Part shown: positions 7,489 through 32,000 of the stretch, piece by piece
Layout of the letters: each line of letters starts with the position of its first letter
Numbering within the stretch: position 1 is the first letter of the stretch
From: Opitutales bacterium
Lineage (GTDB): Bacteria; Verrucomicrobiota; Verrucomicrobiia; Opitutales; PNEW01
Direction of reading: 5' to 3'
Assembly (NCBI GenBank): GCA_965219535.1
Contig: CBDCNV010000002.1
Location: 750,001-782,000 of the forward strand
DNA: 32,000 nucleotides
Translations under genes and position numbers: made by a program
The notes under the pieces: model-generated
The model's input: the letters and a program-made list of their open reading frames with translations, nothing else
Databases searched by the model: none
What the model was told of the DNA's origin: nothing

Positions 7489-8218
7489 TCTTAAAGTCGT
7501 GGACGATTTCGCCAAAACCATCGGTCTGATCTCTTTCAAGGTAGTAGGATTCATAATACTCAAGTGGTTTGAAATCGAAGAGATTGTATGTTGCCGACGG
7601 ATTGAACTGCACGACGCCATCCCCTGCCATGCAAATATGTACGGTAACATCGCTTGACACCTTGGTGTTATCGATAAGCTGCATAACATCGGCTCCATTT
7701 CCGTCGGCTCTCGGGATCACCTTCAGCATCCAAATCGGTTGCAGGACACGCATTTCACTCACGTTTGATTCCTTGTGCATAGTTGAGCGAATGCTCATCA
7801 CCACAGTACCGCTCAAACTGGCTTCGGCATGCATCACACGTTCCGCCATGCCAACATTTACATCAGCATAAACTTTTGGCGTTCCATAAATTTCACGTCC
7901 CGCCGGTATGCTGCATTTCGTATTGAGAAAGGACACAACACAGAAATAACCAACTTTACCTTGGAATATACATTCAACATACAGTTTGCAACCTTCAAAC
8001 TTTCCATAATGGGCCGACCACTCAACAGATATGCCGTGGGCGACGCACAAACCACTTCCTGAAAGCTCAAAACAGGAGGGCAACACCCGATCGATAGCTG
8101 ATTCATCCGCACGGAAAAAAACAAACTGCGATTTGTTGTTTCGATAGCGAGCAGGAGGCCTTGGATAATAAGGTGAAAAGACCGGAATCGTCCCGATCTT
8201 ATCCATAGGTATGGTCAT
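7475..8218 (-). CDS. acetoacetate decarboxylase (ADC) family protein, paralog 1
   Basis: The sequence is MTIPMDKIGTIPVFSPYYPRPPARYRN...GREIYGTPKVYADVNV...LKVIPRADGNGADV. It is collinear with the 246-aa paralog at 9779-10519. The start was chosen at ATG 8218 to match the paralog N-terminus (MTIPMD). Confidence 0.85.
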   Translation of the reverse strand: MTIPMDKIGTIPVFSPYYPRPPARYRNNKSQFVFFRADESAIDRVLPSCFELSGSGLCVAHGISVEWSAHYGKFEGCKLYVECIFQGKVGYFCVVSFLNTKCSIPAGREIYGTPKVYADVNVGMAERVMHAEASLSGTVVMSIRSTMHKESNVSEMRVLQPIWMLKVIPRADGNGADVMQLIDNTKVSSDVTVHICMAGDGVVQFNPSATYNLFDFKPLEYYESYYLERDQTDGFGEIVHDFKNDSL

Positions 8219-8240
8219 AAAATTAAGTTTCCGAATTGAG

Positions 8241-9569
8241 TTATAATTCGACAAATTTTTCATAACCACACCAGTTCATTGCAGCAAGGGCAAAGGTTTT
8301 GGTGGCGGTTATTAATTCTTTGATATAAACATATTCATCAACGGCATGAGCTTGCAGCAAATTGCCAGGTCCATAAATAACCGATGGGGTTCCCGAGATA
8401 TTGAGAAACGCGGCATCGCAAACAGCCGCAAACCCTTGAATTAAATCTCTATCATCAACTGACTTTGGACTTATGACCTCGTTGTGTGCATCGACACATG
8501 TACGGACTATTGGGTGGTTTGTTGGAATCTCAGCCGGTGGCCAATGGAGGTTGAAACTAATTTCAGGTGGGTTTTCACAAAGCCAGGGATCCACTTGACA
8601 GGCTTTGTCAATGTACTCTGTTATCTCTTTCTGGATGTCTTCCTCATTCTCTTGAGGCGGATACCAGACAGCGTATTCAATTGTGCAAAATTCTGATATC
8701 AGGAAGGGAATCAAGACACCGTTCGGGCCCCCGGTAATCACGCCCGGATGAAGAGTAAAGTGCCCTGGTCGGAAAAGCGGATGCTTTTTGCTTTGGCCCC
8801 ACTGCTCTTCAAGCCTGTACAGAGCATTCATAATGAAAATACCTTTCTCAATGGCGCTAACGGCAATCTCTGAACCTCTGCCCCCGGCACGAACCATTTC
8901 ATTTCTCATCGATGCATGACTGGCTTTCCCCCGGCACGTAATACTAAACCAAATCAGCCCTGAGGTAACGGGCATGACTGCCAAAGGCATTAGAGCCGCA
9001 GTAGGCTCGGAGACTATGGCGCCGTCGGCTTTGTATTTCTCACTAACAGCGGAAACGCCAACTTCATGACTCATAGTTTCTTCGCCTACGACACTTTCCA
9101 GAGTAACGTCACCCTTTAACTTGAAGCCGCAGCGTAACACCGCTTCGATTCCTTTGAGTTGGGAAACGAGTCCACCCTTCATATCACAAGAGCCCCGCCC
9201 GTAAAGTTTACCATCTTCAATTTTACCGCTGAATGGATCATTGTACTTCCAATCCGAATGATTGCCCACAGGAACAACGTCGATATGTCCGTTGTAGATG
9301 AGGGAACGCCCCTCTCCGGTCCCACTCAGCACCCCTACCAAGTTTGAGCGGCCTTTTTCTTTTTCAATAAATTCAGTCTCACAACCGATTCCTTTATAAG
9401 CTTCAGCCAATCTCTTGTTGCACTCTGTTTCGATGCCTACCTCCTTGTCGTAGTCCATCCCCGGGTATTTTGGATTAATACTTGGAATTCTCACCAGTTC
9501 CGCTGTCAGGGAAACGATTTCATCCTCCATCTTTTCAACAGTATCCAAGACATCTTTTTTCGTATTCAT
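8241..9569 (-). CDS. M20 family metallohydrolase (ArgE/DapE/ACY1/CPG2-type deacylase/peptidase)
   Basis: The ORF is 442 aa. It has the M20 motifs NGHIDVVP, GRGSCDMKGG and VVGEET. Confidence 0.9.
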   Translation of the reverse strand: MNTKKDVLDTVEKMEDEIVSLTAELVRIPSINPKYPGMDYDKEVGIETECNKRLAEAYKGIGCETEFIEKEKGRSNLVGVLSGTGEGRSLIYNGHIDVVPVGNHSDWKYNDPFSGKIEDGKLYGRGSCDMKGGLVSQLKGIEAVLRCGFKLKGDVTLESVVGEETMSHEVGVSAVSEKYKADGAIVSEPTAALMPLAVMPVTSGLIWFSITCRGKASHASMRNEMVRAGGRGSEIAVSAIEKGIFIMNALYRLEEQWGQSKKHPLFRPGHFTLHPGVITGGPNGVLIPFLISEFCTIEYAVWYPPQENEEDIQKEITEYIDKACQVDPWLCENPPEISFNLHWPPAEIPTNHPIVRTCVDAHNEVISPKSVDDRDLIQGFAAVCDAAFLNISGTPSVIYGPGNLLQAHAVDEYVYIKELITATKTFALAAMNWCGYEKFVEL

Positions 9570-9778
9570 AAACTAACCTTTCACTAAGTCATTCTAATGA
9601 GAAAAAAATATCCCAAGAAGGTTTAACTGTCATTCGACGGTTATCGTGGATAGAAATGGCATCATTTAATTTGCCTATTACAGTACCTTCTGGGGCGTTC
9701 GACGGACCATTGAGTATACTCTCGATAGGATCTTGTCAGAAAATTTTCATATGAGCATCCCGATCGACAGAAAATGCA

Positions 9779-10519
9779 TTAGTCTTGGCGCAAAAAGTCG
9801 TGGACTATATCGGCGTATCCTTCTGTATAGTCTATCTCCAGGTAATGAGCTCCGTAATACTCGAGAGGGGTAAAATCAGAGAGATCATATATTGGCATGG
9901 GGTTAAATTGCACTACCCCTTCTCCGGCATGACACACATGTAGTTTAACATCAGTTGTTGTATTGGAGAGTTCGAGGATCTGCATAACTTCAGCACCCTT
10001 TCCATCTGCTCGGGGTATCACCTTCAGTCGCCATGAAGGTAGTAAATTTGGCAAGTCTTCAGATGCAGCTTGCCTCTCCATGGTCGAGCGGACGCTCATT
10101 ATTGATGCACCCGCTAGAAAGGAATCCGTGTACATCACTCTTTCATCCATCTCTACCTTGACGTCGGCATATACTTTTGGCGTACCGTAAATTTCCCTAC
10201 CAGCCGGAATGCCGGAGCGCGCATTATGGAAAACAACAGGAGCAAAATAGCCCACCTGTCCATTATAAGTACATTTTACGATCAATATACTCTCCTCAAA
10301 CTTTCCATAGTTGGTAGACCAAGGCACGGTAAGGCCGATGGCTACGCAATAGCCATCTTCCGCTGCTTCAAAGCACTCAGGTAACACGCGGTCAACCGCT
10401 GAGACTTCGGCACGAAAATACACAAACTGAAAACAAACGTTTCGATAAGCAGACGGGGGCATAGGATAATACGGCGAGTAGGCCGGCATATTAGCGATTC
10501 TATCCATTGGAATAGTCAT
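9779..10519 (-). CDS. acetoacetate decarboxylase (ADC) family protein, paralog 2
   Basis: The ORF is 246 aa: MTIPMDRIANMPAYSPYYPMPPSAYRN...GREIYGTPKVYADVKV...LKVIPRADGKGAEV. It is clearly paralogous to 7475-8218. Confidence 0.9.
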   Translation of the reverse strand: MTIPMDRIANMPAYSPYYPMPPSAYRNVCFQFVYFRAEVSAVDRVLPECFEAAEDGYCVAIGLTVPWSTNYGKFEESILIVKCTYNGQVGYFAPVVFHNARSGIPAGREIYGTPKVYADVKVEMDERVMYTDSFLAGASIMSVRSTMERQAASEDLPNLLPSWRLKVIPRADGKGAEVMQILELSNTTTDVKLHVCHAGEGVVQFNPMPIYDLSDFTPLEYYGAHYLEIDYTEGYADIVHDFLRQD

Positions 10520-13791: not shown

Positions 13792-16230
13792 TCAATTCCC
13801 ATTCGAGTCGAGGAGGGTCTCGATGGAATTATTAACGGCATGGACTTTGACTCCATTAATCTGAGAGGGGGGTATATTCAGATCAAGCGTTATAGAAATG
13901 GGTGATATAACGGTTAATACCGGGCCAACGGGAGATTCAGCGATAAACTCGTAATTGTAGATACCTTCAGCTGTGGGATTGCTGAAATTGAAATCGACAA
14001 GCCTGGGGTTTGTCCAACCGCTGGTCGTGACCATTCCGTCCGCGGTAATGCTTACCGACTCCGGTGCTGCTGAATCAATCGAGAGTGCTATCCCATTCAC
14101 TTCCAAAATTTTTGTAAATAACGGAAGGCTAATATTTTCACCGAAGGCATTCTCAAAGACAGCTTGTATGTTTGCAGCCTGAATATTTGTCGAATCCGAT
14201 TTGAAATTGTCCTGGGAAATGATGGAGCTGAAACCTGCGTTATCGCCTGTTGACGCCACGATCACATTCGACTCATTACTTTGAAGAAGGTCACCTCCAG
14301 CGATTATCAGTGCTCCATCATATTGAATTAACGAAGATCCCTCTCCCAGTATCAAGTGAGGGACGGCATCACCTGCTGCATCGATATCACCGATAATCGC
14401 TCGCACCAAAACCGGGACTCCAGATGCTTTTACTCCTATATCTCCCGTCGCATTATTGAAGCGTGTATTCGCGCAGAGTATACCGCCGAAACCGGTCGAA
14501 TTAATGATCTCTAATAATGCCACGTCGGCCACCGCATCATAAATTTCCCCTTCTGGGAACAAGTCCTGGTTAAATGCATTGATAGAGCCCACCGTGAAGA
14601 TGCTTAGAAAAGAATTTTCGTCCGCACCCTCCACGCGTATTGTTGGTTGGCCTTTTACATAATTTACCGTTGGCTGATTATACTTTGCCGGCGGCGCTGC
14701 TGCCTCAAATGTGTCCGGATCGAGAGTGACCGTTACGGTTGCGTTACCGGAGAATTCTACCTGAACGATGTCATCATTTAAATCAAGGAAAGAGACACGT
14801 GTAATCTCTGAACCATCTGTGCTCAAGGTAACACTTTGTCCGGTTAACAAGACCTGGTTATAAATGTTTCCGTTGGCGTGGGTGATGTTTTCTCCGACGA
14901 CATCACCGAATCCCTCTTGCACGAGATCAGCGGGGACAGTGCTGAGACTAAACACATAGACCGATCCAGAATCCGTGTCATTGTCATCATCTAATGGCGC
15001 TCCTACCAACACGGTATCTTCGCTGACCTCTGCCGTAAAACCGAACCAATCAAGTGCCACCCCATCGCTTGCCGTTAGTTTTGTAACCTCGCCCCAGTTA
15101 TCAGCTCCGCCAGTATTGCGTTTAAAAACGTAAGCGGAGCCGGAATCCTTACCACTGACATCGTCGAAGGTTGTACTGATAACGACGGTATCCCCGTCAA
15201 TATCGACCCATCCGCCTAACCAGTCATCGGGGTCCCCATCACTTGCGGTCAGTTTTGCGGCTTCACCCCAGTTATCGGGACCGCCCACGTTTCGTTCAAA
15301 GATATAAGCGGCACCGGAATCCACGCCTAGTGCATCGTTCAAGTTTGCACCGATCACAACGGTATCTCCACTGATCTCAACATGATTGCCAAATACATCA
15401 TCAGCTGCGCTGTCACTAGCGGTCAGTTTGTTAACTTCCCCCCAGTTGTCATCACCCCCTGCGTCGCGTTCAAAAATATAAGCCGAACCGGAATTGTGAC
15501 CATCGTCATCATCCCACACCGCACCGGCGACAACAGTGTCTCCGCTGATAGCAACTTGAAATGCAAATTTGTCACCTTCTGCCCCATCGGCTGATTTCAG
15601 TTTCGTCACCTCACCCCAGTTGTCAGGACCGCCGGCATTGCGTTCAAAAATATAGGCAGACCCGGAATCGATACCGTTGTCATCGTCGAAATGCGCACCA
15701 ATGGCAACGGTGTCTCCGCTGATCGCAACCGACCAGCCGAACCAATCACCTGCTGCGCCGTCGCTTGCTAGCAGCTTGGCAACCTGCGACCACGCATTGT
15801 TTCCATCGGTGTTACGTTCAAAGATATAAGCGGAACCGGAATCGATTCCGTTGTCGTCATCTAAATGCGCACCGACCACTAAAGTATCCGCATCGATCGC
15901 CGCAAATATTCCAAAATTATCTCCCAACGCGCCATCGTCAGCAATTAGTTTGGCCACCTCATTCCAATTGTGATTACTGCTCTGGGCGCGCTCATAGACA
16001 TAGACCGCGCCGGAATTATTACCGCTGTCATTTACTAGTGGTGCACCCACAATCAGGGTATCGCTGCTTATCCCTACCGCTCGTCCGAATAGTTCCTCCC
16101 TCGCACCATCACCAGCTAATACTTTGCTCAGCTCATTAGTGATGATTGTTTCAGCGACCAATCCTCCTGAGCCGATCGCCAATAGAGCAAATAAGAGAAG
16201 GTAAAGTAAACACTGCGTGCGCGCATTCAT
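13792..16230 (-). CDS. secreted protein: signal peptide + seven FG-GAP-type repeats (beta-propeller) + shared core domain + unique C-terminal extension
   Basis: The ORF is 812 aa with an N-terminal signal peptide (MNARTQCLLYLLLFALLAIGSGG). There are seven ~57-aa repeats of the form D-G-x-x-G-D-x-F-G...ISGDTVVIGA...DSGSAYIFER...NW.EV.KL. The shared core domain spans aa ~446-680 (GENITHANGNIYNQVLLTG...QDNFKSD), followed by a ~130-aa unique tail. Confidence 0.9.
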   Translation of the reverse strand: MNARTQCLLYLLLFALLAIGSGGLVAETIITNELSKVLAGDGAREELFGRAVGISSDTLIVGAPLVNDSGNNSGAVYVYERAQSSNHNWNEVAKLIADDGALGDNFGIFAAIDADTLVVGAHLDDDNGIDSGSAYIFERNTDGNNAWSQVAKLLASDGAAGDWFGWSVAISGDTVAIGAHFDDDNGIDSGSAYIFERNAGGPDNWGEVTKLKSADGAEGDKFAFQVAISGDTVVAGAVWDDDDGHNSGSAYIFERDAGGDDNWGEVNKLTASDSAADDVFGNHVEISGDTVVIGANLNDALGVDSGAAYIFERNVGGPDNWGEAAKLTASDGDPDDWLGGWVDIDGDTVVISTTFDDVSGKDSGSAYVFKRNTGGADNWGEVTKLTASDGVALDWFGFTAEVSEDTVLVGAPLDDDNDTDSGSVYVFSLSTVPADLVQEGFGDVVGENITHANGNIYNQVLLTGQSVTLSTDGSEITRVSFLDLNDDIVQVEFSGNATVTVTLDPDTFEAAAPPAKYNQPTVNYVKGQPTIRVEGADENSFLSIFTVGSINAFNQDLFPEGEIYDAVADVALLEIINSTGFGGILCANTRFNNATGDIGVKASGVPVLVRAIIGDIDAAGDAVPHLILGEGSSLIQYDGALIIAGGDLLQSNESNVIVASTGDNAGFSSIISQDNFKSDSTNIQAANIQAVFENAFGENISLPLFTKILEVNGIALSIDSAAPESVSITADGMVTTSGWTNPRLVDFNFSNPTAEGIYNYEFIAESPVGPVLTVISPISITLDLNIPPSQINGVKVHAVNNSIETLLDSNGN
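14947..16119 (-). repeat. seven tandem coding repeats (FG-GAP-like blades) inside 13792-16230
   Basis: Seven consecutive units were counted in the translation (aa ~38-428). The DNA-level similarity between units is visible (for example ggaatcgat(a/t)ccgttgtc(a/g)tc recurs). Confidence 0.8.
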
Positions 16231-16357: not shown

Positions 16358-18949
16358 ATGAAGTGCCGTAACGCCATTCTTTTATGTGTTGCCGCTATCC
16401 TGATTTTATCGGGATGCAATGAAAAAGAAGAGCTGACAACTGAAGAGGCGATTACCTGGGGAGAGCTTCAGCAACTGCCAAATTCCTCGGGACTAAGTGG
16501 CGCTTTTTCTGGTCCCAGCAAGGGTGCATTGATTGTCGCGGGAGGAGCAAACTTCATTCAGGAACCGGGGAGAGGAGAGGGAATAGTAAACTGGAATGAT
16601 ACGCTCAATGTGTTAGAGGGCGACCCAGACGCAGCGTGGATAAGTGATTTCGCACTCAAAAAACCGTTGGCTTATGGTGCATCTGTAAGCACAGGTAAAA
16701 GTTTAATCCTGATTGGAGGGAAAAATGCCGAGGGACATCAAAGTGATGTCATTCAACTCACATGGGATCGGGCATCGAAGATGGTCGCCAAGGAGGAGCT
16801 GCCGTCTTTACCGCAGGCAATCGCCTATTCCGGTGCGGCAATAAAAGGTTCGAAATTGTATGTCGTGGGGGGGCAGGGCGGCGATGAGGAGTCAGAGCTA
16901 TCAAACATATTCTTGTCACTCGACTTGAATAACCTGGAAGCTGGTTGGAAAGAGCTGACAACTTGGGATGGGCCCGCTCGGAGAAAAGCGATTACCGTAG
17001 AGCAAAGTATCGGTAATATCACCTATATTTATATCATAGGCGGTGAAGGCTTGTATAAAGATGCGGAAGGTAAAACTCACACTGTGCTGTATACTGACGG
17101 CTATCGTTATTCCCTCCAATATAAGGAATGGAAGCGCATAGCCGATTGCCCCCAACCGATAACGGCGACCCCGGCGATCAAGTACGGACAATCCCATATT
17201 CTCGTCTTTGGTGGAGATAGGGGACAGAAATTAAGCGACGGATCAGAAGACGAGGAGCCGGGATACACGCGCGATCTTCTTGTTTATCATACGATCACTG
17301 ATACCTGGCTAAAAAAGGGGGAGGTCCCGTTGCCGGTGAATGCGACCGAAGCGATTGCCTATAAGGGCGGCATAGTCCTTGTCAGTGGAGAGACCGGTGC
17401 GAGCAAAACGACACCGAAGGTTCAAATCATGTATCATGACAAAGACGCACAGGCATCATTTGGATTAATTAACTACACGTTTCTCATTCTCTATATGGTG
17501 GTCATGGTTTACATCGGTATCTATTTCTCCAGGCGGGAAAAAGGAACTGACGATTACTTTCTCGCAGGACGACGCATACCCTGGTGGGCTGCGGGAATCA
17601 GCGTACTGGGGACGGGTCTCAGCGCATTAACTTATATCTCGCATCCGGCAATGGCTTATTCCATGGACTGGTTTGCCTTCCCGGCAAAGATAGGAATTAT
17701 AATCGCCCCGATCATCACGATTTACTGTTTTTTGCCCTTCTATAGAAGGCTCAATGTTACGACGGCCTATGAGTACCTGGAAAAACGTTTTAACCTTCCG
17801 GTTCGTTTATATGGCAGTGCACAGTTTATCGTTTTTCAATTGGTGCGCATCAGCCTCATTCTCTATTTACCCGGGATTGTATTATCCACGATCACGGGAA
17901 TAAACATCTATGTCTGTGTATTGTCGATGGGGCTGCTCAGCACCTTTTACACCGTGATGGGGGGTATAGAAGCCGTAGTGTGGTCAGACGTTATTCAAGT
18001 TATAGTTTTCTTTGCCGGCATCATTCTCGCAATCATTGTTGTTACTTTTCATGTCGATGGCGGGGTGATGGGTGTCATTGAAATTGGTATGGCCGATGAT
18101 AAATATCGCATGCTGTATCTGGACTGGGATATCACGGCGCCCGTTCTATGGGTGGTCGTGGTGGGGAATTCTTTTAATACCTTAGTGCAATATACCGCGG
18201 ACCAGGGGATGATCCAGCGTTACCTTACAACGAAGGATGAAAAATCAGCGGCAAAAGGCTTGTGGTTAAACGTAGCCGTTACTATTCCCGTGGGGTTGCT
18301 TTTTTTCATCATGGGTGCCGCACTCTATGCCTATTATAAATCGCATCCGGCTGAACTCAGTTTAGGGATGCAAAATGATGCCATTTATCCTCTCTTCACG
18401 GCGCAAAGGATACCCATAGGTCTCGCCGGATTTGTCATAGCGGCCATCTTTTCTGCCGCGATGTCGAGTTTGGACAGCAGCATGAATTCGATAGCGACCG
18501 CTTTTGTCACCGACTTTTACCGAAGATTCAAACCCGATAAGTCTGAACACCAATATTTAAAATTAGCCCGGTGGGTTACATTGGTAATCGGTATTTTTGG
18601 AACCGCTTTTGCTCTCGTCCTTGTGACTTTCGACATTAAGTCGGTGACTTTGTTTAATGTCGCGATCATTGGATTATTAAGCAGTGGACTCGCCGCATTG
18701 TTTGCACTCGGTGTCTTTACCCGTCGCGCCAATGGGATCGGTGTTTTAATCGGAGCAATTACCAGTGCGATCGCCCTTTATTTTATTAAGTTCTACACAC
18801 CGATTAATTTTTATTTCTATGCCTGTCCCGGTTTCATCATCTGTTTTGCCGTGGGGTATCTAGTGAGTTTAGTTATACCGGTAAAAGATAAATCTCTTGA
18901 AGGGCTTACGCTTTATTCTGTCTTAGGAAGAGATGACGAGGGGAAGTGA
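16358..18949 (+). CDS. fusion protein: lipoprotein signal + NanM-like Kelch beta-propeller + sodium:solute symporter (SSS) family transporter, copy 1
   Basis: The ORF is 863 aa. It begins MKCRNAILLCVAAILILSGC, which contains a lipobox. Residues ~30-360 resemble N-acetylneuraminate epimerase NanM/YjhT (GLSGAFSGPSKGALIVAGGANF..., LVSGETGASKTTPKV). Residues ~365-863 form a polytopic SSS domain (DDYFLAGRRIPWW, TAYEYLEKRF, GGIEAVVWSDVIQ, QRYLTTKDEK, AAIFSAAMSSLDS). Confidence 0.9.
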   Translation: MKCRNAILLCVAAILILSGCNEKEELTTEEAITWGELQQLPNSSGLSGAFSGPSKGALIVAGGANFIQEPGRGEGIVNWNDTLNVLEGDPDAAWISDFALKKPLAYGASVSTGKSLILIGGKNAEGHQSDVIQLTWDRASKMVAKEELPSLPQAIAYSGAAIKGSKLYVVGGQGGDEESELSNIFLSLDLNNLEAGWKELTTWDGPARRKAITVEQSIGNITYIYIIGGEGLYKDAEGKTHTVLYTDGYRYSLQYKEWKRIADCPQPITATPAIKYGQSHILVFGGDRGQKLSDGSEDEEPGYTRDLLVYHTITDTWLKKGEVPLPVNATEAIAYKGGIVLVSGETGASKTTPKVQIMYHDKDAQASFGLINYTFLILYMVVMVYIGIYFSRREKGTDDYFLAGRRIPWWAAGISVLGTGLSALTYISHPAMAYSMDWFAFPAKIGIIIAPIITIYCFLPFYRRLNVTTAYEYLEKRFNLPVRLYGSAQFIVFQLVRISLILYLPGIVLSTITGINIYVCVLSMGLLSTFYTVMGGIEAVVWSDVIQVIVFFAGIILAIIVVTFHVDGGVMGVIEIGMADDKYRMLYLDWDITAPVLWVVVVGNSFNTLVQYTADQGMIQRYLTTKDEKSAAKGLWLNVAVTIPVGLLFFIMGAALYAYYKSHPAELSLGMQNDAIYPLFTAQRIPIGLAGFVIAAIFSAAMSSLDSSMNSIATAFVTDFYRRFKPDKSEHQYLKLARWVTLVIGIFGTAFALVLVTFDIKSVTLFNVAIIGLLSSGLAALFALGVFTRRANGIGVLIGAITSAIALYFIKFYTPINFYFYACPGFIICFAVGYLVSLVIPVKDKSLEGLTLYSVLGRDDEGK

Positions 18950-19265: not shown

Positions 19266-20454
19266 CTACTGCACAAATGCGCTAATGGCATTTACGATGG
19301 CGAGATAGCGGGGTTCCTCGGCGTCGTTGGCGAGCATACTGGGTTCATAGACGCTGAAATTGTTATGGTCTCCGCTCCGCTCGACGGTGATCTCATAATT
19401 GAATCCATCAGCGACCGTCGATAAAAGATCACCATTCGAGGGTATGGTGAATACATCATTCAATTCGAGTTCTTGCCAAAGCTGGTCTAAATCTTCCGCG
19501 GCGATCTCAAATTCTGATCGTTCGCCGGTAAACCCTTCCACGAATACATAAATTATTGATCCGTCAATTTCCCTAAGGGTTGTCAATTCTGAGATACCCG
19601 CAATGCCTCCGGTTTTATGCATAACAATACTTCCAATGATTATGTTCTTTTCGACCGCGACGGTTATTGTCTCTCCATTCCCATTTACGAAAGTGGTGTC
19701 AATCCCCTGCGAGGGTTGATCCGATCCATCTGACTTTACATTGTCTTGGGTTATGAGTGTCTCAAATCCGGGTGTCGTCGATCCATCCGGCGCTACGACT
19801 ATCGAAACTCCGTTTGACTGTTGAAGATCACCGCCTGTGATTCGCAATCCGGAATTGTTTGCGGGGACCGTGAAGGAACCATCTCCAAATAAAAGGTACG
19901 GAACGGCATCCCCACTGGCATCGATGTCGCCCAGGGTTAAGCGAACCGTGATCGGCACGCCGGTCGCATCGACCCCCACCTTACCCGTGTTCCCGCTAAA
20001 GACGGTATTCGATAATTGCATTCCACCCATTCCCGTGGAGTTGGTGACTTCCACCAGGCTCACATCCGCCTTGGCATCATAGACCTGCCCATCGGGAAAC
20101 AATGCCTGGTTCACGGCGTTTATTGATCCAACAGTGAAGATACTGAAAAAGGTGCTGGAGTCCGCTCCCTCGATTACCACGCTGGGCTTGCCCGTGACGT
20201 AGAGAACTTCCTGGTTATAGCGAGGTGGAAGGGCAGGGGGTGTGAAAGTGATTGGATCCAGAGTTACAGTAAAGGTACCGGATCCCGAGAACTCTACCTG
20301 GACAATATCTTCGTCTTCGTCCATGAACGATACGCGGGTGATCTGATTCTGTTTTGCCTGGAGCCTAATACTTTCACCGGTGAGCAAAACCTGGTCGAAT
20401 ATGTTTCCATTCGGATGAATTATATTCTCTCCGACAACATTACCTGAGCTGGAG
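19266..20454 (-). pseudogene. C-terminal fragment (core domain + unique tail) of a core-domain family gene split by the IS element
   Basis: The frame is open from the IS boundary (…SSSGNVVGENIIHPNGNIFDQVLLTGESIRLQAK…) to the stop at 19266. The 'M' start in the ORF track is a TTG inside the conserved LLTGE motif, so it is not a real start. The core spans ~19728-20432, followed by a ~150-aa unique tail. Confidence 0.8.
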
Positions 20455-20514
20455 TGACCCCCAAAAATCGTATCATTTACAGAGAGAGGTTATCGGGATA
20501 AACAGATAACCTCA

Positions 20515-20808
20515 ATGAAAAGAAAAAGATACACAACAGAACAGATTATAACAATATTGCGGCAAGCCGATACCGGTAAAACGGTACAGGAAATCTGCCG
20601 TGGAAACAACCTGAGCGAACAGACTTTCTATCGCTGGCGTAAAAAATATGGCAATTTAGAACTTGCCGATGCGAAGCGATTTAAAGAGCTGGAAAAAGAA
20701 TTCACGAGCGCAAGCGAGAAGGCCTGACATACCGAGCTGAAGAAGCTGCTCGCAGATCAAATGCTCAAGAATCAGGTAATGGAGGAAACGCTGTCAAAAA
20801 AATGGTGA
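20515..20808 (+). pseudogene. IS3-family transposase OrfA (HTH + leucine-zipper) with an in-frame TGA at 20725-20727
   Basis: The frame reads MKRKRYTTEQIITILRQADTGKTVQEICRGNNLSEQTFYRWRKKYGNLELADAKRFKELEKEFTSASEKA*HTELKKLLADQMLKNQVMEETLSKKW*. Both parts are in the same frame. Confidence 0.75.
20796..20802 (+). promoter_or_regulatory. A AAA AAA -1 programmed ribosomal frameshift heptamer (OrfA->OrfAB)
   Basis: The sequence tcA AAA AAA tgg tga is in the OrfA frame. A -1 slip enters the OrfB frame exactly at 20802 (atg gtg agc ...). This is the classic IS3-family arrangement. Confidence 0.75.
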
Positions 20809-21767
20809 GCCCAAAGCAGAAGAAACGAGTAGTAAAAGCTGCGGCTGAGAAAGGGTTGTGCTCGTTGCGGAGGGCTTGTGCTTATCTCAGCCTGAGTTGG
20901 TCAACGTTCAGTTACCGGCCCAAACAGGCCAGTGAGAAAGCTCAGCGGTTGGTCGAGCGGATTGTGAGCTTGTCCTGGAAACATCCCCGCTACGGTTACC
21001 GGCGCATCCGTGCCTTGCTGGTAAAGGAAGGCTGGACAACAAGCAGGAAGTTTGTCCAGGCGGTACGACGTTCAGAAGGGCTGCAGGTAAAGCCCCCGAA
21101 AAAGGGCAGACACCGTCAAGGAGTCTCTACGGGGTCACCTACTAAAGCAAAGGGTCGCAATCACGTTTGGTCCTGGGACTTTGTCCATGATCGTACAGAC
21201 AACGGCGGTCCATTAAAGATGATGACTCTAATCGATGTACCGAGGAGCTGAAAGCGACGACACTCAAGCGAAGCGAAGACATATACGCGTAAATGCCTGG
21301 ATATCCGGGTCGCTCGTCAACTCACCTCAACCGATGTCCTCTCTGTGCTTAGCGAGGCCATTGAAGAGGAGGGACCTCCCAGCTATATCCGTAGTGACAA
21401 CGGCAGTGAGTTCATTGCTCATCAAGTGCAGCAGTGGTTGTCCGGTAATAACATAAAGGCGATCTATATCGATCCGGGCAGTCCCTGGCAAAACGGTTTC
21501 ATCGAGTCGTTTCACAACCGCTTACGCGATGAGTGTTTGAACCGTGAAGTGTTGCTCAGCGTGGCTGAAGCGCAAGTGGTAATCGAACAATGGCGTCAGA
21601 CCTATAACCATGAACATCCCCACAGTCGTTTAGGCTTCAAAAGCCCACAAGAGTTTGTCAGATTCCTTTCCGATCTTGGCCGCGTTCGGGCTACGCCCTC
21701 ACTTCGCCAAGATCTCTCATATACATCAATCCTAAAACCATTAACACCCGGTAACTCTCTCACTTAA
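20802..21767 (+). pseudogene. IS3-family transposase OrfB (DDE integrase-like) with an in-frame TGA at 21249-21251
   Basis: ORFs 20802-21251 and 21345-21767 are in the same frame (both start coordinates are multiples of 3). Reading through gives ...LKMMTLIDVPRS*KRRHSSEAKTYTRKCLDIRVARQLTSTDVLSVLSEAIEEEGPPSYIRSDNGSEF.... Confidence 0.75.
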
Positions 21768-21788
21768 ATTGGTACGAAAAACGGGGTC

Positions 21789-23002
21789 CGATCAGAGCCT
21801 TCGATGATAAGATCCTGGCCCTCTCCGGTGAATTGGATCGAAAGCATAGGTCGTCTATCCGCGGTGACACTTTCTTTACTGTCGAATTGAGTCGACGATC
21901 CCGTAATCGAATCATCGACGATCAGAATCCAGCCAAAATTCTGGTCAGGGTTATCCAACCAGGCTTGTGTGTCGGCAATCATCGCAAGTGAACTCCAGGT
22001 AATAAAACCCGTCTCTGATAAAGTTTGGGTAGCGGATGGGGTGGTTACAAAATCACCTCCCGGTGTAGTCCAATTATCACTCTCGAAAAAGCTAAAATTC
22101 CAAGTGGCGTCTCCAATTGTCGGGGGACCACCCTGACCGGCACCCACAGAGTTTCCCTCGCCCCATTCCTGGTTAAGACTGTGTAAGAAAGTGTCTACTG
22201 AGATGTCATTCGTCGGCGCGCCACGTTTATTGGCAAACAAAGTAAGCGACACGGATTCAATGACTCCGTTGCTGGGAATGCTGCCGGCCAGGTCAAATTG
22301 AATTAACGCTCGGCGAATCCCCGAACCCATCTGGCCCTGCGTTCTACCGGAAAAAAGATCAATGCCATGGGCATTACTGTTATCATTTTCCGAATAAATG
22401 GAGTTATCTTTAATAGATTCAAGGATAACGGTATTAATGGGTGGTCCTATAAGATAGGAGAAACCGAGATCATCAAGGGCGAAGAGACCTACAACATTCA
22501 AAACTGTGATTTCCCTGATCCCGCTCGTATAATCTAAATCCGATGTATCGTTATTATCACCACTGAAGGCGACAAAACTTTGTAAAGGGGCAATGACGTC
22601 GGGGCCTATATTTACGGGCAGACCATCGACGACACCATTGGGATGCAATTCTATGCCGGTTTTGTCCCGCACCTCTATCCTTCCAGCGCCCGTTGTTTCC
22701 GCAGCCGTGAATTGGAGTAAGTTAACCCCGCGTTCAAAAATTATTCTACCTTCCTGCCCCGGCGCGAGAATCAGGGCCCGGGTTCCCGAACTATATATAT
22801 TAGGATTGCTCGTCGCAGTCGCGGTAAATCCAATGACCCGGATACTATTGGGTGATTCGCCGAGGATAAAATCTCCCGAGCCCTCATCATTCTCAAAATC
22901 GAAAAAGTTATCGAGGTTTTGGGGCTGGGCGAGAACCAGGACAGGTAAAGCTATTAAGAGTGTTGTGAACGATAAAAGTTTCTTACTGCTCATGGGCTGC
23001 AT
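21789..23002 (-). pseudogene. N-terminal fragment (signal peptide + N-module + DNRLRE-like domain) of the IS-split core-domain family gene
   Basis: The signal peptide is MQPMSSKKLLSFTTLLIALPVLVLAQP. The N-module is homologous to the N-termini of 26032-28239 and 28518-30728 (NFFDFENDEGSGDFILGESPNSIRVIGFT...GTRALILAPGQEGRIIFE). The following segment (RRALIQFDLAGSIP...LNQEWGEG...ATWN...NFGWILIV...RRPMLSIQF) looks like a DNRLRE-type domain. The last 8 codons of the track ORF (to 21764) are read from IS sequence. Confidence 0.8.
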
Positions 23003-23192: not shown

Positions 23193-25775
23193 ATGAAACG
23201 TCTATTTATCCTTTCGTTAACATTATTCGGTGTCTTATTAATTACGGGTTGCAGTGAGACTGAAGCTCCGCAATCGGAAGCGATCACCTGGGAAGAGCTT
23301 CCCGAACTTCCCAATACGGTTGGCTTGGGTGGCGCGTTTTCCGGGGTGAGCAATGGAGCATTGATCGTCGCCGGTGGGGCGAATTTTCCCGATGAACCCG
23401 AGTGGGAGGGTGGGACAAAAGTCTGGTATGATGATATTTATATTTTAACGCCTGAAAATAAAGAAAAGGAGTGGTTGACCGGATTTAAACTTAATCAACC
23501 GCTTGCTTACGGGGCCTCGGTCAGCAGTGGGGACAGCCTGATCCTGATCGGCGGCAGCGATGCCGAACGCTATCATGACGGGGTCACAAAACTCACCTGG
23601 AATCCTGAAGGCGAGATAATTGAGCAAAGCTCTCTTCCATCCTTACCGCAACCGCTATGCTTTGGTGATGCAGCTGTGATTGAAGATACGCTATACGTAG
23701 CAGGCGGCCAGGTCGGTGAGGATAGCGAGAGTCTGATAAATATATTCTGGTCTCTCGACCTGAGCATTAAAGATGCAGAATGGATTGTATTAGAACCCTG
23801 GGATGGACCGGCCCGAAGGAAGGCGCTTGTAACAGCTCAGAATGAGGGAGACAGGACATATTTATATATTATCGGAGGCGAAGATCTGATTAACGATGGG
23901 GACGGGAAAGTAAAATTCAATCCATTGATTGATGGTTACCGTTACTCACTAAGGTATAAGCAATGGGAACGTATTGCTGATGCACCGCATCCAATAACGT
24001 CGGCATCGGGGATATCCTATGGTCAATCGCACATTCTGGTATTTGGTGGAGCAACGGGTGAATATCTCGGTCAGATTCTGCGGGATGATCACCCTGGATT
24101 TTCCACCGACCTGCTCGTCTATCATACAATTACCGACACCTGGCTAATCAAAGATAAAATACCTTTAAGTGTGGTCACCTCAAATGCCGTGTCCTGGGGA
24201 GTAGGGATCGCGCTTGTAAGTGGTGAGATTCGACCCAGTAGAAGAACACCCAAGGTCCAACTAATGATGCATGACACCGGCGCGCGCGCGACCTTTGGCA
24301 TAATAAATTACCTTTTTCTCATTTCATACATGATAGGGTTGGTAATCATGGGCCTCTATTTTTCCAAACGGGAGAAGGGAACAGATGATTACTTTCTCGC
24401 CGGACGCCGCATACCCTGGTGGGCTTCAGGGCTAAGCGTCATGGGGACCGGACTTAGCGCGCTCACATACATTTCCCTGCCGGCACTAGTTTATGGCACA
24501 GACTGGTTTTCTTATCCCGGAGTTGTCGGACTCTTGCTCGTCCCGATAATTACGGTCTACTTTTATCTGCCCTTCTTCAGAAGGCTCAACATCGTCACCG
24601 CTTTTGAATACCTTGAAAGACGATTTAATCTCCCGGTTCGCTTATACGGCAGTGCACAGTTTATCATCTTTCAATTGGTACGGATCAGTATCGTATTGTA
24701 TTTGCCCGCCATCGTTCTCTCCACGATCACTGGAATAAACATTTACGTATGCATACTATCGATGGGACTGCTGAGTACTTTTTATACGGTGCTCGGTGGG
24801 ATAGAAGCGGTGGTCTGGACGGATGTTTTTCAAGTCATTATTTTCTTTGGTGGAATCATCGTGGCCCTGATTGTTATTCCCTTTCATATCGAAGGCGGTG
24901 TTATGGAGATGATTAAAACGGGAATGGCCGACGATAAATTCCGCATTTTTTACCTGGAATGGGATATTACGGCGACGACCTTTTGGGTAGTCGTTCTTGG
25001 TGGTGGATTTGGTACCTTAATCCAGTACACCTCTGATCAAGCGATGATCCAAAGGTATCTTACAACAAAGGATGAAAAGGCGGCGGCTAAAGGGTTATGG
25101 CTAAATGTAGCGATGACTATTCCTACCGGATTATTATTTTACTGTATGGGGACCGCGCTTTATACCTTTTACCATTCCCACCCTTCAAGCGTTAACCTGG
25201 GAATGCAGAATGATGCGATTTTCCCTTTATTCATATCACAGAAAATTCCCGTGGGTCTTGCGGGGCTTTTGATTGCCGCTATTTTTTCCGCCGCGATGTC
25301 GAGTCTGGACAGCGGGATGAACTCGATGGCCACGGCCTTTGTCACCGATTTCTACCGACGATTAAAACCGAACGCTTCGGAGCATAGCTGTTTAAGGCTC
25401 GCTCGCTTGGCCACTTTGATTATAGGTGTATTTGCCACTGCGGTTGCTTTACTCATGGTAACCTTTGACATCAAGTCCGCATCTCTCTTTTTCACTTCAA
25501 TCCTTGGCCTATTCAGCAGTGGGTTAGCGGGACTATTTGCGCTTGGTATTTTCACAAAACGGTCAAAAGGGATCGGGGCTTTTATAGGAGCGATCACGAG
25601 CGCAATTGTCCTGTATTGTATAAAATACTATACTGATATTAACTTTTATCTCTATGCTTTTCTTGGCTTCGTGGTCTGTTTCATCGTGGGTTACTTCGCG
25701 AGTCTTATTATCCCGGAGAAAGAGAAATCGATGGAGGGGCTCACGCTCTATACTTCACTTCCCAGGCAAGACTGA
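23193..25775 (+). CDS. fusion protein: lipoprotein signal + NanM-like Kelch beta-propeller + sodium:solute symporter, copy 2
   Basis: It is collinear with 16358-18949 over its full length. The start was chosen at ATG 23193, which gives MKRLFILSLTLFGVLLITGC with a lipobox; the ORF track uses an upstream GTG at 23157. The same SSS motifs are present (DDYFLAGRRIPWW, TAFEYLERRF, QRYLTTKDEK, AAIFSAAMSSLDS). Confidence 0.9.
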   Translation: MKRLFILSLTLFGVLLITGCSETEAPQSEAITWEELPELPNTVGLGGAFSGVSNGALIVAGGANFPDEPEWEGGTKVWYDDIYILTPENKEKEWLTGFKLNQPLAYGASVSSGDSLILIGGSDAERYHDGVTKLTWNPEGEIIEQSSLPSLPQPLCFGDAAVIEDTLYVAGGQVGEDSESLINIFWSLDLSIKDAEWIVLEPWDGPARRKALVTAQNEGDRTYLYIIGGEDLINDGDGKVKFNPLIDGYRYSLRYKQWERIADAPHPITSASGISYGQSHILVFGGATGEYLGQILRDDHPGFSTDLLVYHTITDTWLIKDKIPLSVVTSNAVSWGVGIALVSGEIRPSRRTPKVQLMMHDTGARATFGIINYLFLISYMIGLVIMGLYFSKREKGTDDYFLAGRRIPWWASGLSVMGTGLSALTYISLPALVYGTDWFSYPGVVGLLLVPIITVYFYLPFFRRLNIVTAFEYLERRFNLPVRLYGSAQFIIFQLVRISIVLYLPAIVLSTITGINIYVCILSMGLLSTFYTVLGGIEAVVWTDVFQVIIFFGGIIVALIVIPFHIEGGVMEMIKTGMADDKFRIFYLEWDITATTFWVVVLGGGFGTLIQYTSDQAMIQRYLTTKDEKAAAKGLWLNVAMTIPTGLLFYCMGTALYTFYHSHPSSVNLGMQNDAIFPLFISQKIPVGLAGLLIAAIFSAAMSSLDSGMNSMATAFVTDFYRRLKPNASEHSCLRLARLATLIIGVFATAVALLMVTFDIKSASLFFTSILGLFSSGLAGLFALGIFTKRSKGIGAFIGAITSAIVLYCIKYYTDINFYLYAFLGFVVCFIVGYFASLIIPEKEKSMEGLTLYTSLPRQD

Positions 25776-26031: not shown

Positions 26032-28239
26032 TCACTCGATAGTGATCTCTTCGAGAACAACCTCAATCGCGTCGCCATCTTCGTTAGCGAAGGTAGCGTC
26101 AATGCTCAGGGTCGGCTGAGGGGTGTTGTCGGACTTGAAGTTGTTTTGCGTGATCAGGGTGTCAAACCCGGTCGTTGTCGATCCGCTCTCCGCGACGACG
26201 ACTGCGGCGCCGTTAGTCTGCAAGAGGTCACCACCAGTGATCCGCAACCCGGGGTTACCGGCGGCAACAGTGAAGGAACCTTCACCGAAGAGAATGTGAG
26301 GTACTGCATCGCCACTGGCATCGATATCGCCAATCGTTAAGCGTACCCCGATCGGTACCCCCCGCGCGTCGATACCGGTTTTGCCGGTACTTCCACTGAA
26401 CGCGGTGTTCGACAGTTGTATGCCGCCCATGCCCGTGGAATTTACAATTTCAACTAACGTAACGTCTGCCTGTGCATCATAGACTTGACCTTCGGGGAAG
26501 AGGGCCTGGTTAAACGCGTTGATCCTACCCACGGTGAAGATGCTGAAGAAGGTATTGGCGTCCGCTCCATCGATCACGACGCTCGGTTTGCCCGTCACGT
26601 ACTCAACGGCCTGGTTGTAGCGTGGAGGGATGGCCGGGGGCAGGAAGGTGGCCGGATCGAGGGTTACGGTAAAGGTCCCATTACCTGAAAATTCTACCTG
26701 CACGATGTCCTCATTTTCATCCATGAAGGAGACGCGGGTGATCTGTCCCGGTTTGGCCTGGAGTTGGACGGACTCTCCGGTGAGTAAAATCTGGTCGAAG
26801 ACATTACCGTTGGCATGCTGAATATTTTCCCCCGCGATATCGCCCGAGCCGTCGAGGACGAGGGGAATAGCCGGTGCCGCTACCGTGATCACGGCGGTAT
26901 CGCTGTCAGCACTGCCTCCAGCGTTGGTAATTTGTGCCCAGTAGTTCGTGCTGGTTGTGAGGGCACCGGTAGTTAAAGTGTTGCTTGTGGCGCCCGCGAC
27001 GGGAGCTGCGGTATCACCGCTGTTGCCGGTATACCACTGATAGGTGAGGTCGTCACCGCTGGCAGCAACAGTGAGGACTACCGCGGTGCCGGATGGGACA
27101 TCCTGGCTCGCGGGTTGGGTGGTGATTGCTGGACCTGTTGCCGGAGGTGGTCCGCCGCCGCCATCGAAACCTGGAGTCCCAATCGGGGAAAATCCGAAAT
27201 TGTCGATCGCTGTCGAGCTAAACAAAGGATTAATAAGAACATCATCGAGTAAAAGAATTTTGCCAATACCACCAGGAGCTCCTAGTTCGTTGGCATCAAA
27301 AGTGAAGTGTGGAAGTCCTGACCCCGCTAAGATATTCGACCCCAGGTTATTTTCTGAGAAGAGTAAATTATCTTCAGTATCATATACCTCAATAGTACCA
27401 TCGCCTCCACCGCTGCTTGTGCGCACGACAGTTGCGGCAAAAAATTGCACTCGGGCTGCGGGGGTTTCAAAAGTGATCGTTCCAGTATCACCATTCACAA
27501 CCCTCCAGTGACTACGCAATGAGCGAAATTGAAATTGTAAGTCATCTTCAGCTTCCTGGGATATATCCCCACCTGAAAAAGTGGCGGTAAAAGGCGAAGT
27601 CCCCACGGTAACATCCTCACTGGTTGGTTGGAATTCTGAAAAAAAGGTGAATACCGTGTTATTGGATGGGCCATCAATGAGGGTATAGCCCACATCATCG
27701 ATCGCTAATTTTCCGGTAACATTGAAAAATTTAATTTCAGTCATGCCGTCAAAGTAGTTGAGATCCTCTAAATCCTGGAAAAACCCACTGAAGGCGACTA
27801 AACTTTGCAGGGGTGGATTGGACTCAGGATTGATGCTGTTAGGCAGGCCCGTAAAACTGCCCTGCTGAGATAAGGTGAATATTTCTTGTCCATTAGTGGA
27901 TGTCCCGCGTTCTCGAACCTCGTACTTACCCCCGCCCGTGCTTTCAGCAGCGTAGAATTCGATTTCAGCAATGCCTTTTCTCGTGAAGATTTTTCCCTCC
28001 TGGCCGGGCCCCAGGGTTATGGCTTTCGTTCCCGAGTGTAAGAGACTCGGGTCCTCTAACGTTTCTACGGTAAACCCGATAAATTGAATTTGATTGGGCG
28101 GATCACCGAGTAAAAAGTCTACCGTTCCTTCGGCATCTTCAAAATCTAAAAAATTTTCCTGGTCCTGCGGAAGCGCTCGAAGAAGAAGAGGAAATAAAAG
28201 TGAGATTAGCGATACAGATACGAGATTTTTTATGCGCAT
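26032..28239 (-). CDS. secreted modular protein: signal peptide + N-terminal beta-sandwich-like modules + Ig-like domain + shared core domain (tandem copy 1)
   Basis: The ORF is 735 aa with an AGGGGGG Shine-Dalgarno sequence 5 nt upstream. The signal peptide is MRIKNLVSVSLISLLFPLLLRALP. An Ig-like segment is present (PAITTQPASQDVPSGTAVVLTVAASGDDLTYQWY...AVITV). The core spans aa ~470-704, followed by the acidic tail ...LEEITIE. Confidence 0.9.
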   Translation of the reverse strand: MRIKNLVSVSLISLLFPLLLRALPQDQENFLDFEDAEGTVDFLLGDPPNQIQFIGFTVETLEDPSLLHSGTKAITLGPGQEGKIFTRKGIAEIEFYAAESTGGGKYEVRERGTSTNGQEIFTLSQQGSFTGLPNSINPESNPPLQSLVAFSGFFQDLEDLNYFDGMTEIKFFNVTGKLAIDDVGYTLIDGPSNNTVFTFFSEFQPTSEDVTVGTSPFTATFSGGDISQEAEDDLQFQFRSLRSHWRVVNGDTGTITFETPAARVQFFAATVVRTSSGGGDGTIEVYDTEDNLLFSENNLGSNILAGSGLPHFTFDANELGAPGGIGKILLLDDVLINPLFSSTAIDNFGFSPIGTPGFDGGGGPPPATGPAITTQPASQDVPSGTAVVLTVAASGDDLTYQWYTGNSGDTAAPVAGATSNTLTTGALTTSTNYWAQITNAGGSADSDTAVITVAAPAIPLVLDGSGDIAGENIQHANGNVFDQILLTGESVQLQAKPGQITRVSFMDENEDIVQVEFSGNGTFTVTLDPATFLPPAIPPRYNQAVEYVTGKPSVVIDGADANTFFSIFTVGRINAFNQALFPEGQVYDAQADVTLVEIVNSTGMGGIQLSNTAFSGSTGKTGIDARGVPIGVRLTIGDIDASGDAVPHILFGEGSFTVAAGNPGLRITGGDLLQTNGAAVVVAESGSTTTGFDTLITQNNFKSDNTPQPTLSIDATFANEDGDAIEVVLEEITIE

Positions 28240-31215: not shown

Positions 31216-32000
31216 TCACTCTATCGTCAACTCTTCGGTCGTCACAGTTATCGCATCCCCATCTTCATTGGCAAAAGACGCGACAATACTCTGAGTCGGC
31301 TGAGGGGTTTCATCGGACTTGAAGTTATTCTGAGAGATCAAGGTCTCAAACCCTGGGGTTGTCGATCCACTCTCCGCGACCACAACCGCGGCATCATTGG
31401 CCTGCGCCAGGTCTCCACCAGTGATTCGCAAACCGGGGTTTCCCGCCGGTACCGTAAAGGATCCTGTGCCAAACAGTATATGTGGTACTGCATCGCCACT
31501 GGCATCGATGTCACCTACCGTTAGCCGTACTGCGATAGGGGTACCTCGCGCATCCACGCCTATCTTGCCGGTGCTTCCACTGAAGACGGTGTTCGACAGC
31601 TGCATCCCACCCATTCCCGTGGAGTTGATCACTTCCACCAACGAGACGTCAGCCTGGGCGTCATAGACTTGGCCTTCGGGGAACAGTGCCTGGTTCACGG
31701 CGTTGATCTTTCCTACTGTGAAGATGCTGAAGAAGGTATTGGCGTCCGCTCCTTCGATGACCACACTCGGCTTTCCCGTCACGTACTCCACGGCCTGGTT
31801 GTAGCGAGGGGGCAGAGCCGGGGGCAGGAAGGTGGCCGGGTCGAGGGTGACGGTAAAAGTCCCAGCGCCTGAGAACTCTACCTGCACAATGTCCTCGTTT
31901 TCATCCATAAAGGAAACGCGGGTGATCTGATTCGGTTTCGCCTGGAGTTGGACGAACTCACCGGTTAATAAGATCTGGTCGAAGACGTTCCCGTTGGGAT
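31216..32000 (-). CDS. core-domain family protein, C-terminal part only (gene continues beyond the right edge)
   Basis: The frame stays open upstream of the track's Met to the window end (…NGNVFDQILLTGEFVQLQAKPNQITRVSFMDENEDIVQVEFSG…). It contains the core domain and the tail ...TEELTIE. Confidence 0.85.
   Translation of the reverse strand, partial: PNGNVFDQILLTGEFVQLQAKPNQITRVSFMDENEDIVQVEFSGAGTFTVTLDPATFLPPALPPRYNQAVEYVTGKPSVVIEGADANTFFSIFTVGKINAVNQALFPEGQVYDAQADVSLVEVINSTGMGGMQLSNTVFSGSTGKIGVDARGTPIAVRLTVGDIDASGDAVPHILFGTGSFTVPAGNPGLRITGGDLAQANDAAVVVAESGSTTPGFETLISQNNFKSDETPQPTQSIVASFANEDGDAITVTTEELTIE

Follow-up and report, generated by a model that had tools for sequence, protein, structure and literature searches.

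The window analyzed here, a stretch of 32,000 nucleotides (positions 750,001 to 782,000, forward strand, of contig CBDCNV010000002.1 in the Opitutales assembly GCA_965219535.1), carries two paralogous genes lying 4 kb apart on the plus strand, hereafter called copy 1 (16358-18949, 863 residues) and copy 2 (23193-25775, 860 residues). Both encode a single polypeptide of three parts, namely a signal peptide with a lipobox, a six-bladed and cyclically permuted β-propeller of the NanM type, and a complete 13-helix permease of the sodium:solute symporter (SSS) type. Their open reading frames (ORFs) are intact, with no internal stops, and match the Pfam families NANM and SSF, in agreement with the first-pass annotation of this DNA; the sequence strings that it quoted, GLSGAFSG...GALIVAGGANF and LVSGE...TPKVQ, are indeed present in the translations. 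The ORF of copy 2 opens at a GTG (23157) and its homologs begin with MKRLF, which corresponds to the ATG at 23193. Over their full length the two proteins share 63% identity, a value that falls to 53% for the propeller and rises to 72% for the permease. The design has been known since 2021, when it was published under the name of SiaF (Severi et al. 2021; PMC8461474), so that the novelty implied for the fusion does not hold and the proteins of the window are not a new kind of protein; they are new, somewhat diverged SiaF members from a marine-type Verrucomicrobium.

Within the ST5 sialic acid transporters, SiaF was described as an SSS domain of 13 helices preceded by a NanM domain that appears there under the label "CPM, cyclically permutated mutarotase", carries a leader peptide and has lost the dimerisation hairpin (Severi et al. 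2021; PMC8461474). It was found in Bacteroidetes, Planctomycetes and Verrucomicrobia, with Alistipes timonensis A0A1H4AP10 as the exemplar and a further case in Pseudoalteromonas, and the same study proposed that the tethered enzyme hands β-N-acetylneuraminic acid (β-Neu5Ac) straight to the carrier (PMC8461474). The suggestion made earlier for the present genes, that an anomerase tethered to its symporter channels the transported anomer, is the one proposed for SiaF by Severi et al. (2021).

The fusion cannot be attributed to a frameshift or a missing stop codon, which the first-pass annotation had kept in mind, nor to the merging of adjacent genes by assembly. We found nothing in favour of such an artefact, which can be ruled out with near certainty: two independent fusion copies occur in a single window, all of the 120 best database homologs, which come from many independent assemblies, contain the two domains and are of the same length, and the linker between propeller and permease is conserved across homologs. 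Orthologs of copy 1 in four genomes are collinear, and their ratios of non-synonymous to synonymous substitution (dN/dS) lie at 0.15-0.23 for the propeller and at 0.05-0.07 for the permease; these low values indicate purifying selection on both halves and across their junction. AlphaFold2 also produced a confident two-domain model of copy 1, with a predicted local distance difference test (pLDDT) of 85 and a predicted template modelling score (pTM) of 0.86, in which strands occupy residues 32-360 and helices residues 370-839.

The propeller extends over residues ~30-360 in both proteins (copy 1, 16445-17437; copy 2, 23280-24272; plus strand). It matches Pfam NANM (PF24996) with 109.7 bits in copy 1 and 123.4 bits in copy 2, the cut-off being 45, and the match is split into two parts of swapped order, residues 27-137 corresponding to profile positions 223-344 and residues 149-287 to positions 2-125. 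The domain is thus a circular permutation of Escherichia coli NanM. The best NCBIfam model, TIGR03548, describes a cyclically-permuted mutarotase (130.0 bits for copy 1, 151.6 bits for copy 2). A profile built from 36 homologs retrieves E. coli YjhT/NanM (2UVK) with E 2e-26, as against 4.5e-13 for the best generic Kelch protein. For this domain, a Foldseek search with the full model retrieved nothing but generic Kelch propellers; structure comparison does not separate NanM from Kelch in this case, probably owing to the permutation. The nan clusters of Parabacteroides and Hymenobacter contain stand-alone mutarotases that are permuted in the same way and align with more than 90% of the domain at 28-35% identity; between the propeller of copy 2 and the Hymenobacter protein, identity is 34.5% across 93% of the propeller. 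Unlike the window domains, these mutarotases are separate proteins encoded beside sialidase, NanU/SusCD, esterase and NanA-like genes. These comparisons support the assignment of the N-terminal domain to the NanM type rather than to generic Kelch proteins, as the first-pass annotation had supposed.

The propeller alone has 283 relatives at E<=1e-30 (counted as cluster representatives at 50% identity), and of the best 150 about one in four is as long as a transporter fusion. Other architectures occur among the relatives: five proteins of 700-1100 residues (P0253, P0257, P0330, P0378 and P0296) carry the permuted mutarotase domain at the C-terminus or in mid-protein, in fusion designs distinct from that with the transporter. 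Four longer variants of the transporter fusion (P0051, P0088, P0094 and P0105, 1242-1292 residues) have ~400 extra residues before the permease. In P0088, four stretches match the propeller query, which is suggestive of two propellers in tandem; the pocket residues of all four resemble those of Pseudoalteromonas SiaF.

The permease occupies residues 367-848 in both copies (copy 1, 17456-18901; copy 2, 24291-25736; plus strand), with an SSF match at residues 400-802 (E 3e-47; 1.3e-46 for copy 2). By far the closest solved relative is the Na+/Neu5Ac symporter SiaT of Proteus mirabilis (5NV9/5NVA), found with E 5e-104 against 4e-54 for the next SSS structure, or with 3.5e-159 against 5.8e-85 when a homolog profile is used. 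Identity with SiaT is 38% over 482-489 columns, and the helical part of the model superposes on 5NVA with a TM-score of 0.94 and an rmsd of 2.2 Å. The number of 13 helices was taken from the end-to-end alignment of the domain with SiaT residues 5-489, Kyte-Doolittle counting being too crude for this purpose. A complete permease of the SiaT type is therefore present, and its N-out orientation fits the periplasmic N-terminus that had been deduced previously. SiaT differs in having no extracytoplasmic domain.

Mutagenesis of SiaT has assigned carboxylate binding to S60, T63 and R135 and Na+ binding to S342, S343, D182 and S346 (PMC5931594). In copy 1, S422, T425, R497, D544, S703 and S704 correspond to SiaT S60, T63, R135, D182, S342 and S343, and the carboxylate and Na+-site residues are equally kept in copy 2; the clamp, the Na2 site (S342, S343) and the Na3 site (D182, S346) are hence all retained. 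Six of these positions (S60, T63, R135, D182, S342 and S346) show no variation across the 122 fusions examined; S343 is Ser in both copies and throughout their Opitutales relatives and Ser or Thr in distant fusions. SiaT Q250 is conserved in the fusions and S345 is replaced by Asp in both copies.

Annotated references for comparison were a SiaF of Pseudoalteromonas whose gene has sialidase, nagA and NanA-like genes beside it, the SiaT of Plesiomonas, which lies in a nanA-nanE-nanK-nanQ cluster, the stand-alone permuted mutarotases of Parabacteroides and Hymenobacter, and E. coli nanM. In a small, distance-based neighbour-joining tree of the permease domains (100 bootstraps), the fused proteins and SiaT separate from two unfused Opitutales SSS proteins with 100% support, all fused proteins, Pseudoalteromonas SiaF included, cluster together with 93% support, and the Opitutales sequences form one radiation supported at 100%. 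The comparison with SiaT that had been called for is thus favourable to the ST5 grouping. Genes 81-89% identical to copy 1 are found in Opitutales metagenome-assembled genomes and in "Verrucomicrobia bacterium Opi.OSU.00C", and at least six members of the radiation are present on a single contig of 3.1 Mb.

Within this radiation the eight pocket columns of the permease have a mean pairwise identity of 0.37, compared with 0.73 for the whole permease domain and 1.00 for the seven anchor columns. Only 5e-5 of random eight-column sets have an identity as low as the pocket, a figure that is indicative rather than a formal test, since the sequences are related and the alignment of the second transmembrane helix holds an indel. 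A variable pocket combined with invariant anchors is expected if the paralogs share the carboxylate/Na+ mechanism but differ in substrate.

In precursor numbering, the catalytic motif of E. coli NanM reads N-G-E228-A-K-P-G-L-R234-T, its Glu and Arg becoming E209 and R215 when the 19-residue signal peptide is subtracted. Mutation of E209 and R215 is reported to have impaired the mutarotase activity of NanM, in work by Severi and colleagues from 2008. Both E. coli NanM and the two permuted mutarotases of Bacteroidota have this Glu and Arg, as do 69 of about 75 distant fusions. When aligned with NGEAKPGLRT, copy 2 shows the motif G344-E345-I-R-P-S-R-R351 (24222-24245, plus strand), in which Glu and Arg are kept, and copy 1 the counterpart G344-E345-T-G-A-S-K-T351 (17387-17410, plus strand), in which Arg is replaced by Thr. 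We further considered 42 columns at which E. coli NanM and the two Bacteroidota nan-cluster mutarotases agree with each other and with at least 85% of the distant fusions. Of these columns, copy 2 keeps 38, the four exceptions being at non-polar or Gly/Pro positions, and possesses the equivalents of E228, R234, K302, R75 and D106 (precursor numbering). Copy 1 retains E345, R208 and D247, but R234 has become T351 and K302 has become V77; the orthologs of copy 1 have Thr at position 351, Val or Glu for K302, and Glu, Gln or Lys at position 345. The Arg is confined, within the radiation, to the clade of copy 2 (11 of the 39 sequences).

The concern that the domain might lack mutarotase residues is therefore partly borne out for copy 1, which has Thr351, Val77 and a variable position 345, and not for copy 2, which keeps Glu, Arg and Lys. 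Judged from these residues, the propeller of copy 2 looks canonical and that of copy 1 appears conserved but catalytically atypical. Both share with E. coli NanM the six-bladed Kelch fold, the equivalents of R75, D106 and Y328 and the structural Gly/Trp residues, the GE....R motif being altered in copy 1; they differ from it in their circular permutation and in their covalent link to a transporter. Moreover, E. coli NanM has an insertion of ~35 residues, at around 150-185, for which the alignment gives no counterpart in either copy and which we infer to be the helical hairpin of NanM dimerisation reported missing in SiaF. As a consequence of the permutation, the strand with the catalytic motif becomes the last before the membrane, ~20 residues upstream of the first transmembrane helix (TM1).

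In the N-termini of the two proteins, MKCRNAILLCVAAILILSGC and MKRLFILSLTLFGVLLITGC, Cys20 completes a lipobox according to a PROSITE-like rule, namely the pattern [LVI][ASTVI][GAS]C following a positively charged n-region and a hydrophobic h-region; by this pattern-based test a short basic n-region, an h-region and a lipobox are found in each copy. The signal peptide of copy 1 (16358-16417, plus strand) ends in ILSG|C, with Cys20 kept in the orthologs, and that of copy 2 (23193-23252, plus strand) in LITG|C. The AlphaFold2 model of copy 1 shows a helix at residues 2-20 and then a disordered linker at 19-28. The N-terminus is thus probably lipid-modified at Cys20 in both copies. About three quarters of the sequences in the Opitutales radiation have Gly-Cys20, the other paralogs carrying His, Arg or Ile instead of the Cys, and a lipobox-like match is rare in distant fusions (4 of 71), the N-termini of which resemble ordinary signal peptides; as far as sequences tell, the lipobox is specific to the Opitutales lineage and not universal even there. 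Severi et al. (2021; PMC8461474) speak only of a "leader peptide" for SiaF and leave the lipoprotein type unmentioned. The lipobox signals that the first-pass annotation pointed out are thus upheld, but a lipoprotein signal in this context is less odd than it had seemed: the stand-alone permuted mutarotase of Parabacteroides has a lipobox too (VAGC), from which it follows that the lipobox of the fusions may have been inherited from a lipoprotein ancestor of the propeller domain.

The two window proteins hence resemble published SiaF in their leader peptide, in the permuted NanM domain without dimerisation hairpin, in the 13-helix permease related to SiaT, in their occurrence in Verrucomicrobia and in clustering with Pseudoalteromonas SiaF. 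They depart from it in lying outside a nan cluster, in belonging to a radiation of multiple paralogs, in the lipoprotein-type signal, in the absence of the mutarotase Arg and Lys from copy 1 and in the absence from both copies of the non-carboxylate contacts of SiaT. What is added here to the published family is the lineage-specific radiation, the variable pocket with its invariant anchors, the loss of residues in copy 1, the lack of nanA, nanK and nanE from the nine loci of this lineage that were examined, and the lineage-limited lipobox. The NanZ(ST4 MFS)-NanM protein of Akkermansia, also in Verrucomicrobia and encoded outside the nan cluster, joins a NanM-like domain to the N-terminus of a sialic acid transporter by a fusion that arose independently (Severi et al. 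2021); in it, unlike the present cases, the transporter belongs to the major facilitator superfamily (MFS) with an extra helix rather than to the SSS type.

We consider, with a probability of roughly 0.7, that both genes are SiaF members, i.e. ST5 sodium:solute symporters of the sialic acid type with an N-terminal cyclically permuted NanM-like propeller, operating by the following mechanism. The signal peptide would export the N-terminus, for which the lipobox motif points to probable lipid modification at Cys20, and the propeller would then sit in the periplasm directly atop the transporter, with the catalytic-motif strand placed by the permutation just before TM1. The permease would import a carboxylated sugar together with Na+, using a Ser/Thr/Arg clamp and Na2/Na3 sites like those of SiaT, as their invariant residues suggest. 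Because the conserved Glu, Arg and Lys are kept, the propeller of copy 2 would most likely be an anomerase supplying the transported anomer, whereas that of copy 1 would probably have altered chemistry or serve as a built-in domain for substrate capture, because its Arg and Lys are gone and yet purifying selection persists. The substrate is most likely a sialic-type acid, either nonulosonic or 2-keto-3-deoxy, and the two copies probably differ in specificity. Neu5Ac itself is a plausible substrate, for which the local gene context gives no support.

Several points weigh against this interpretation. The scores with TIGR03548 fall under the NCBI curated cut-off of 243.2 bits and the matches cover positions 2-231/232 of the 323 in the profile. 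The seven residues of SiaT that contact Neu5Ac other than through its carboxylate (T58, F78, G81, Q82, F243, N247 and W404) are replaced in both copies, and also in the Pseudoalteromonas SiaF of a nan cluster; our residue alignment does not reproduce, even for this protein, the conservation of the SiaT site in SiaF stated by Severi et al. (2021; PMC8461474). Genes of sialic acid catabolism are missing, too: no homolog of DHDPS/NanA, ROK/NanK or NanE is encoded in the 32-kb window, and no nanA, nanK or nanE is present in eight related Opitutales loci of ~22 kb each, where the neighbouring genes are heterogeneous (Amidohydro_2, Rieske, enolase-superfamily dehydratase, sulfatase and BNR_2). The sialic acid role suggested in the first-pass annotation consequently finds no support from such catabolic genes in any of the nine loci. 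What argues here for a catalytic role of NanM Glu209 and Arg215 is their conservation, and the literature found contains no assay of any permuted mutarotase, nor an experimental characterisation of any SiaF, its transport of sialic acid or a follow-up of the original proposal.

A more conventional explanation would be that both copies transport Neu5Ac, with propellers active as Neu5Ac mutarotases and the two genes as redundant isoforms. It would account for the close relation with the Neu5Ac symporter SiaT and the conserved carboxylate clamp, for the proximity of the N-terminal domain to the permuted mutarotases of true nan clusters, and for the position of a distant fusion (P0077) between a gene for a GH33-like sialidase/GDSL esterase and sulfatase/sialidase genes, surroundings that fit the use of sialic acid; a BNR_2 gene is, moreover, syntenic with copy 1 in relatives. 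The explanation fits poorly with the absence of the conserved Arg and Lys from copy 1, the orthologs of which vary at Glu, with the presence of at least six paralogs per genome, with the low identity of the pocket and with the lack of nan catabolic genes in the nine loci, and we therefore hold it to be rather unlikely. Alternatively, the lineage may have re-purposed the family for sugars other than sialic acids, such as aldonic acids, uronic acids or products from the sulfated glycans of algae or animals; the propeller would then be a general anomerase or binding module. The diversified pocket would agree with this, as would the genomic surroundings of some paralogs: P0037 and P0028 flank a cluster coding for an enolase-superfamily dehydratase, a 2-hydroxyacid dehydrogenase, a short-chain dehydrogenase/reductase (SDR), Amidohydro_2 and Gfo/Idh/MocA proteins, which looks like one of sugar-acid catabolism; a sulfatase gene follows P0020; and in the Planctomycete-type relatives P0064 and P0071 (L016 8601-12562 and L018 8601-12553) the fusion overlaps an upstream amidase-signature gene by 4 bp. 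Such neighbourhoods are, however, circumstantial, both window copies appear to be transcribed alone and transporters of the ST5 clade are not known to carry anything but sialic acids; re-purposing of this kind is unlikely in our view. The invariant Arg clamp does not discriminate between these substrates, since it would fit any carboxylate.

The interpretation of both genes as SiaF members can be extended by a bolder proposal, which we advance as doubtful: in this Opitutales lineage the SiaF scaffold may have radiated into at least six Na+-coupled transporters of different acidic sugars, in which several propellers, including that of copy 1, would be lipid-anchored and function now as covalently tethered substrate-capture domains in the periplasm instead of mutarotases. 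If this were true, a secondary transporter would have evolved its own fused binding protein out of an enzyme. SiaF is a published family in which an enzyme of sialic acid metabolism is covalently coupled to a transporter, and the present pair offers a natural comparison within it, with paralogs 4 kb apart that have an intact versus a degenerate mutarotase motif and differing substrate pockets. This comparison bears on whether catalysis by the propeller is needed for transport and on cargo other than Neu5Ac in ST5 transporters. It also follows for annotation that the domain pair "NanM plus SiaT-like", when found without nan genes, should not be called Neu5Ac uptake.

As to the gene context, the genes on either side of each copy lie on the opposite strand, in convergent or divergent orientation, which is why the copies appear to be transcribed alone; a scan for promoters and terminators around both fusion genes gave results at chance level. 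The window further encodes an SDR, a TIM-barrel isomerase-like protein, an extradiol dioxygenase-DUF6081 protein, a copper amine oxidase, two proteins of the acetoacetate decarboxylase (ADC) family, an M20 peptidase and large secreted repeat proteins. The BNR/sialidase-like protein encoded at 4216-5463, which the first-pass annotation had brought in as context, is of little weight: it is a BNR_2 protein whose gene is syntenic with copy 1 in relatives, but it has no signal peptide, is encoded on the other strand 11 kb away, resembles GH33 sialidases at the level of the Asp-boxes (E about 4e-6), and has no N-terminal RIP motif and no NCBIfam match. Its identification as a sialidase is rejected, since the resemblance to GH33 does not go beyond the Asp-boxes. 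A BNR_2 gene also follows one of the paralogs in the related Opitutales loci.

In a related genome (L001, 7182-12595), genes for an MFS protein, an Amidohydro_2 protein and a 121-residue Rieske protein lie ahead of the copy 1 ortholog and on its strand, the last with a gap of 12 bp. This block is absent from the window, where an FG-GAP gene abuts copy 1 directly. Relative to the synteny with L001, a cluster on the minus strand (5497-10519) is inserted between the BNR_2 and FG-GAP genes and codes for the copper amine oxidase, the two ADC-family proteins and the M20 peptidase; the ORF of the amine oxidase overlaps the upstream ADC gene by ~220 bp, so that its true start is probably a downstream ATG. 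The gene at 2401-4092 (plus strand) encodes a two-domain extradiol dioxygenase similar to HpaD/catechol 2,3-dioxygenase (residues 3-282) fused to a C-terminal DUF6081, and adjoins the SDR, TIM-barrel isomerase-like and cupin genes. In the Planctomycete-type loci L016 and L018, a divergent gene for an AMP-binding enzyme lies nearby, and the operon appears unlike one of sialic acid catabolism.

The gene between the two copies (19266-23002) is interrupted, its fragments 19272-20447 and 21794-22432 being split by the remnant of an IS3-family transposase (HTH_21 plus rve), itself broken into the ORFs 20802-21251 and 21345-21767; a search for terminal inverted repeats of this remnant found none. In the relative L003 the same gene is a single one, encoding a secreted protein of 641 residues, of which residues 37-249 and 249-640 correspond to the two sides of the insertion. 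A C-terminal domain of ~250 residues is common to five copies or fragments in the window, namely 26032-28239, 28518-30728, 31216-31908 (which runs off the window end), 19266-20387 and the C-terminal half of 13792-16230. AlphaFold2 modelled this shared domain in a neighbouring secreted protein of 735 residues with pLDDT below 50, and no fold was assignable to it. The secreted 'Ig_7' family of ~735 residues that carries the shared domain has 491 database matches, all unnamed, and appears to be restricted to these Opitutales; at least eight distinct copies occur on single genomes, and copies flank SiaF-like genes in L001, L014 and L019.

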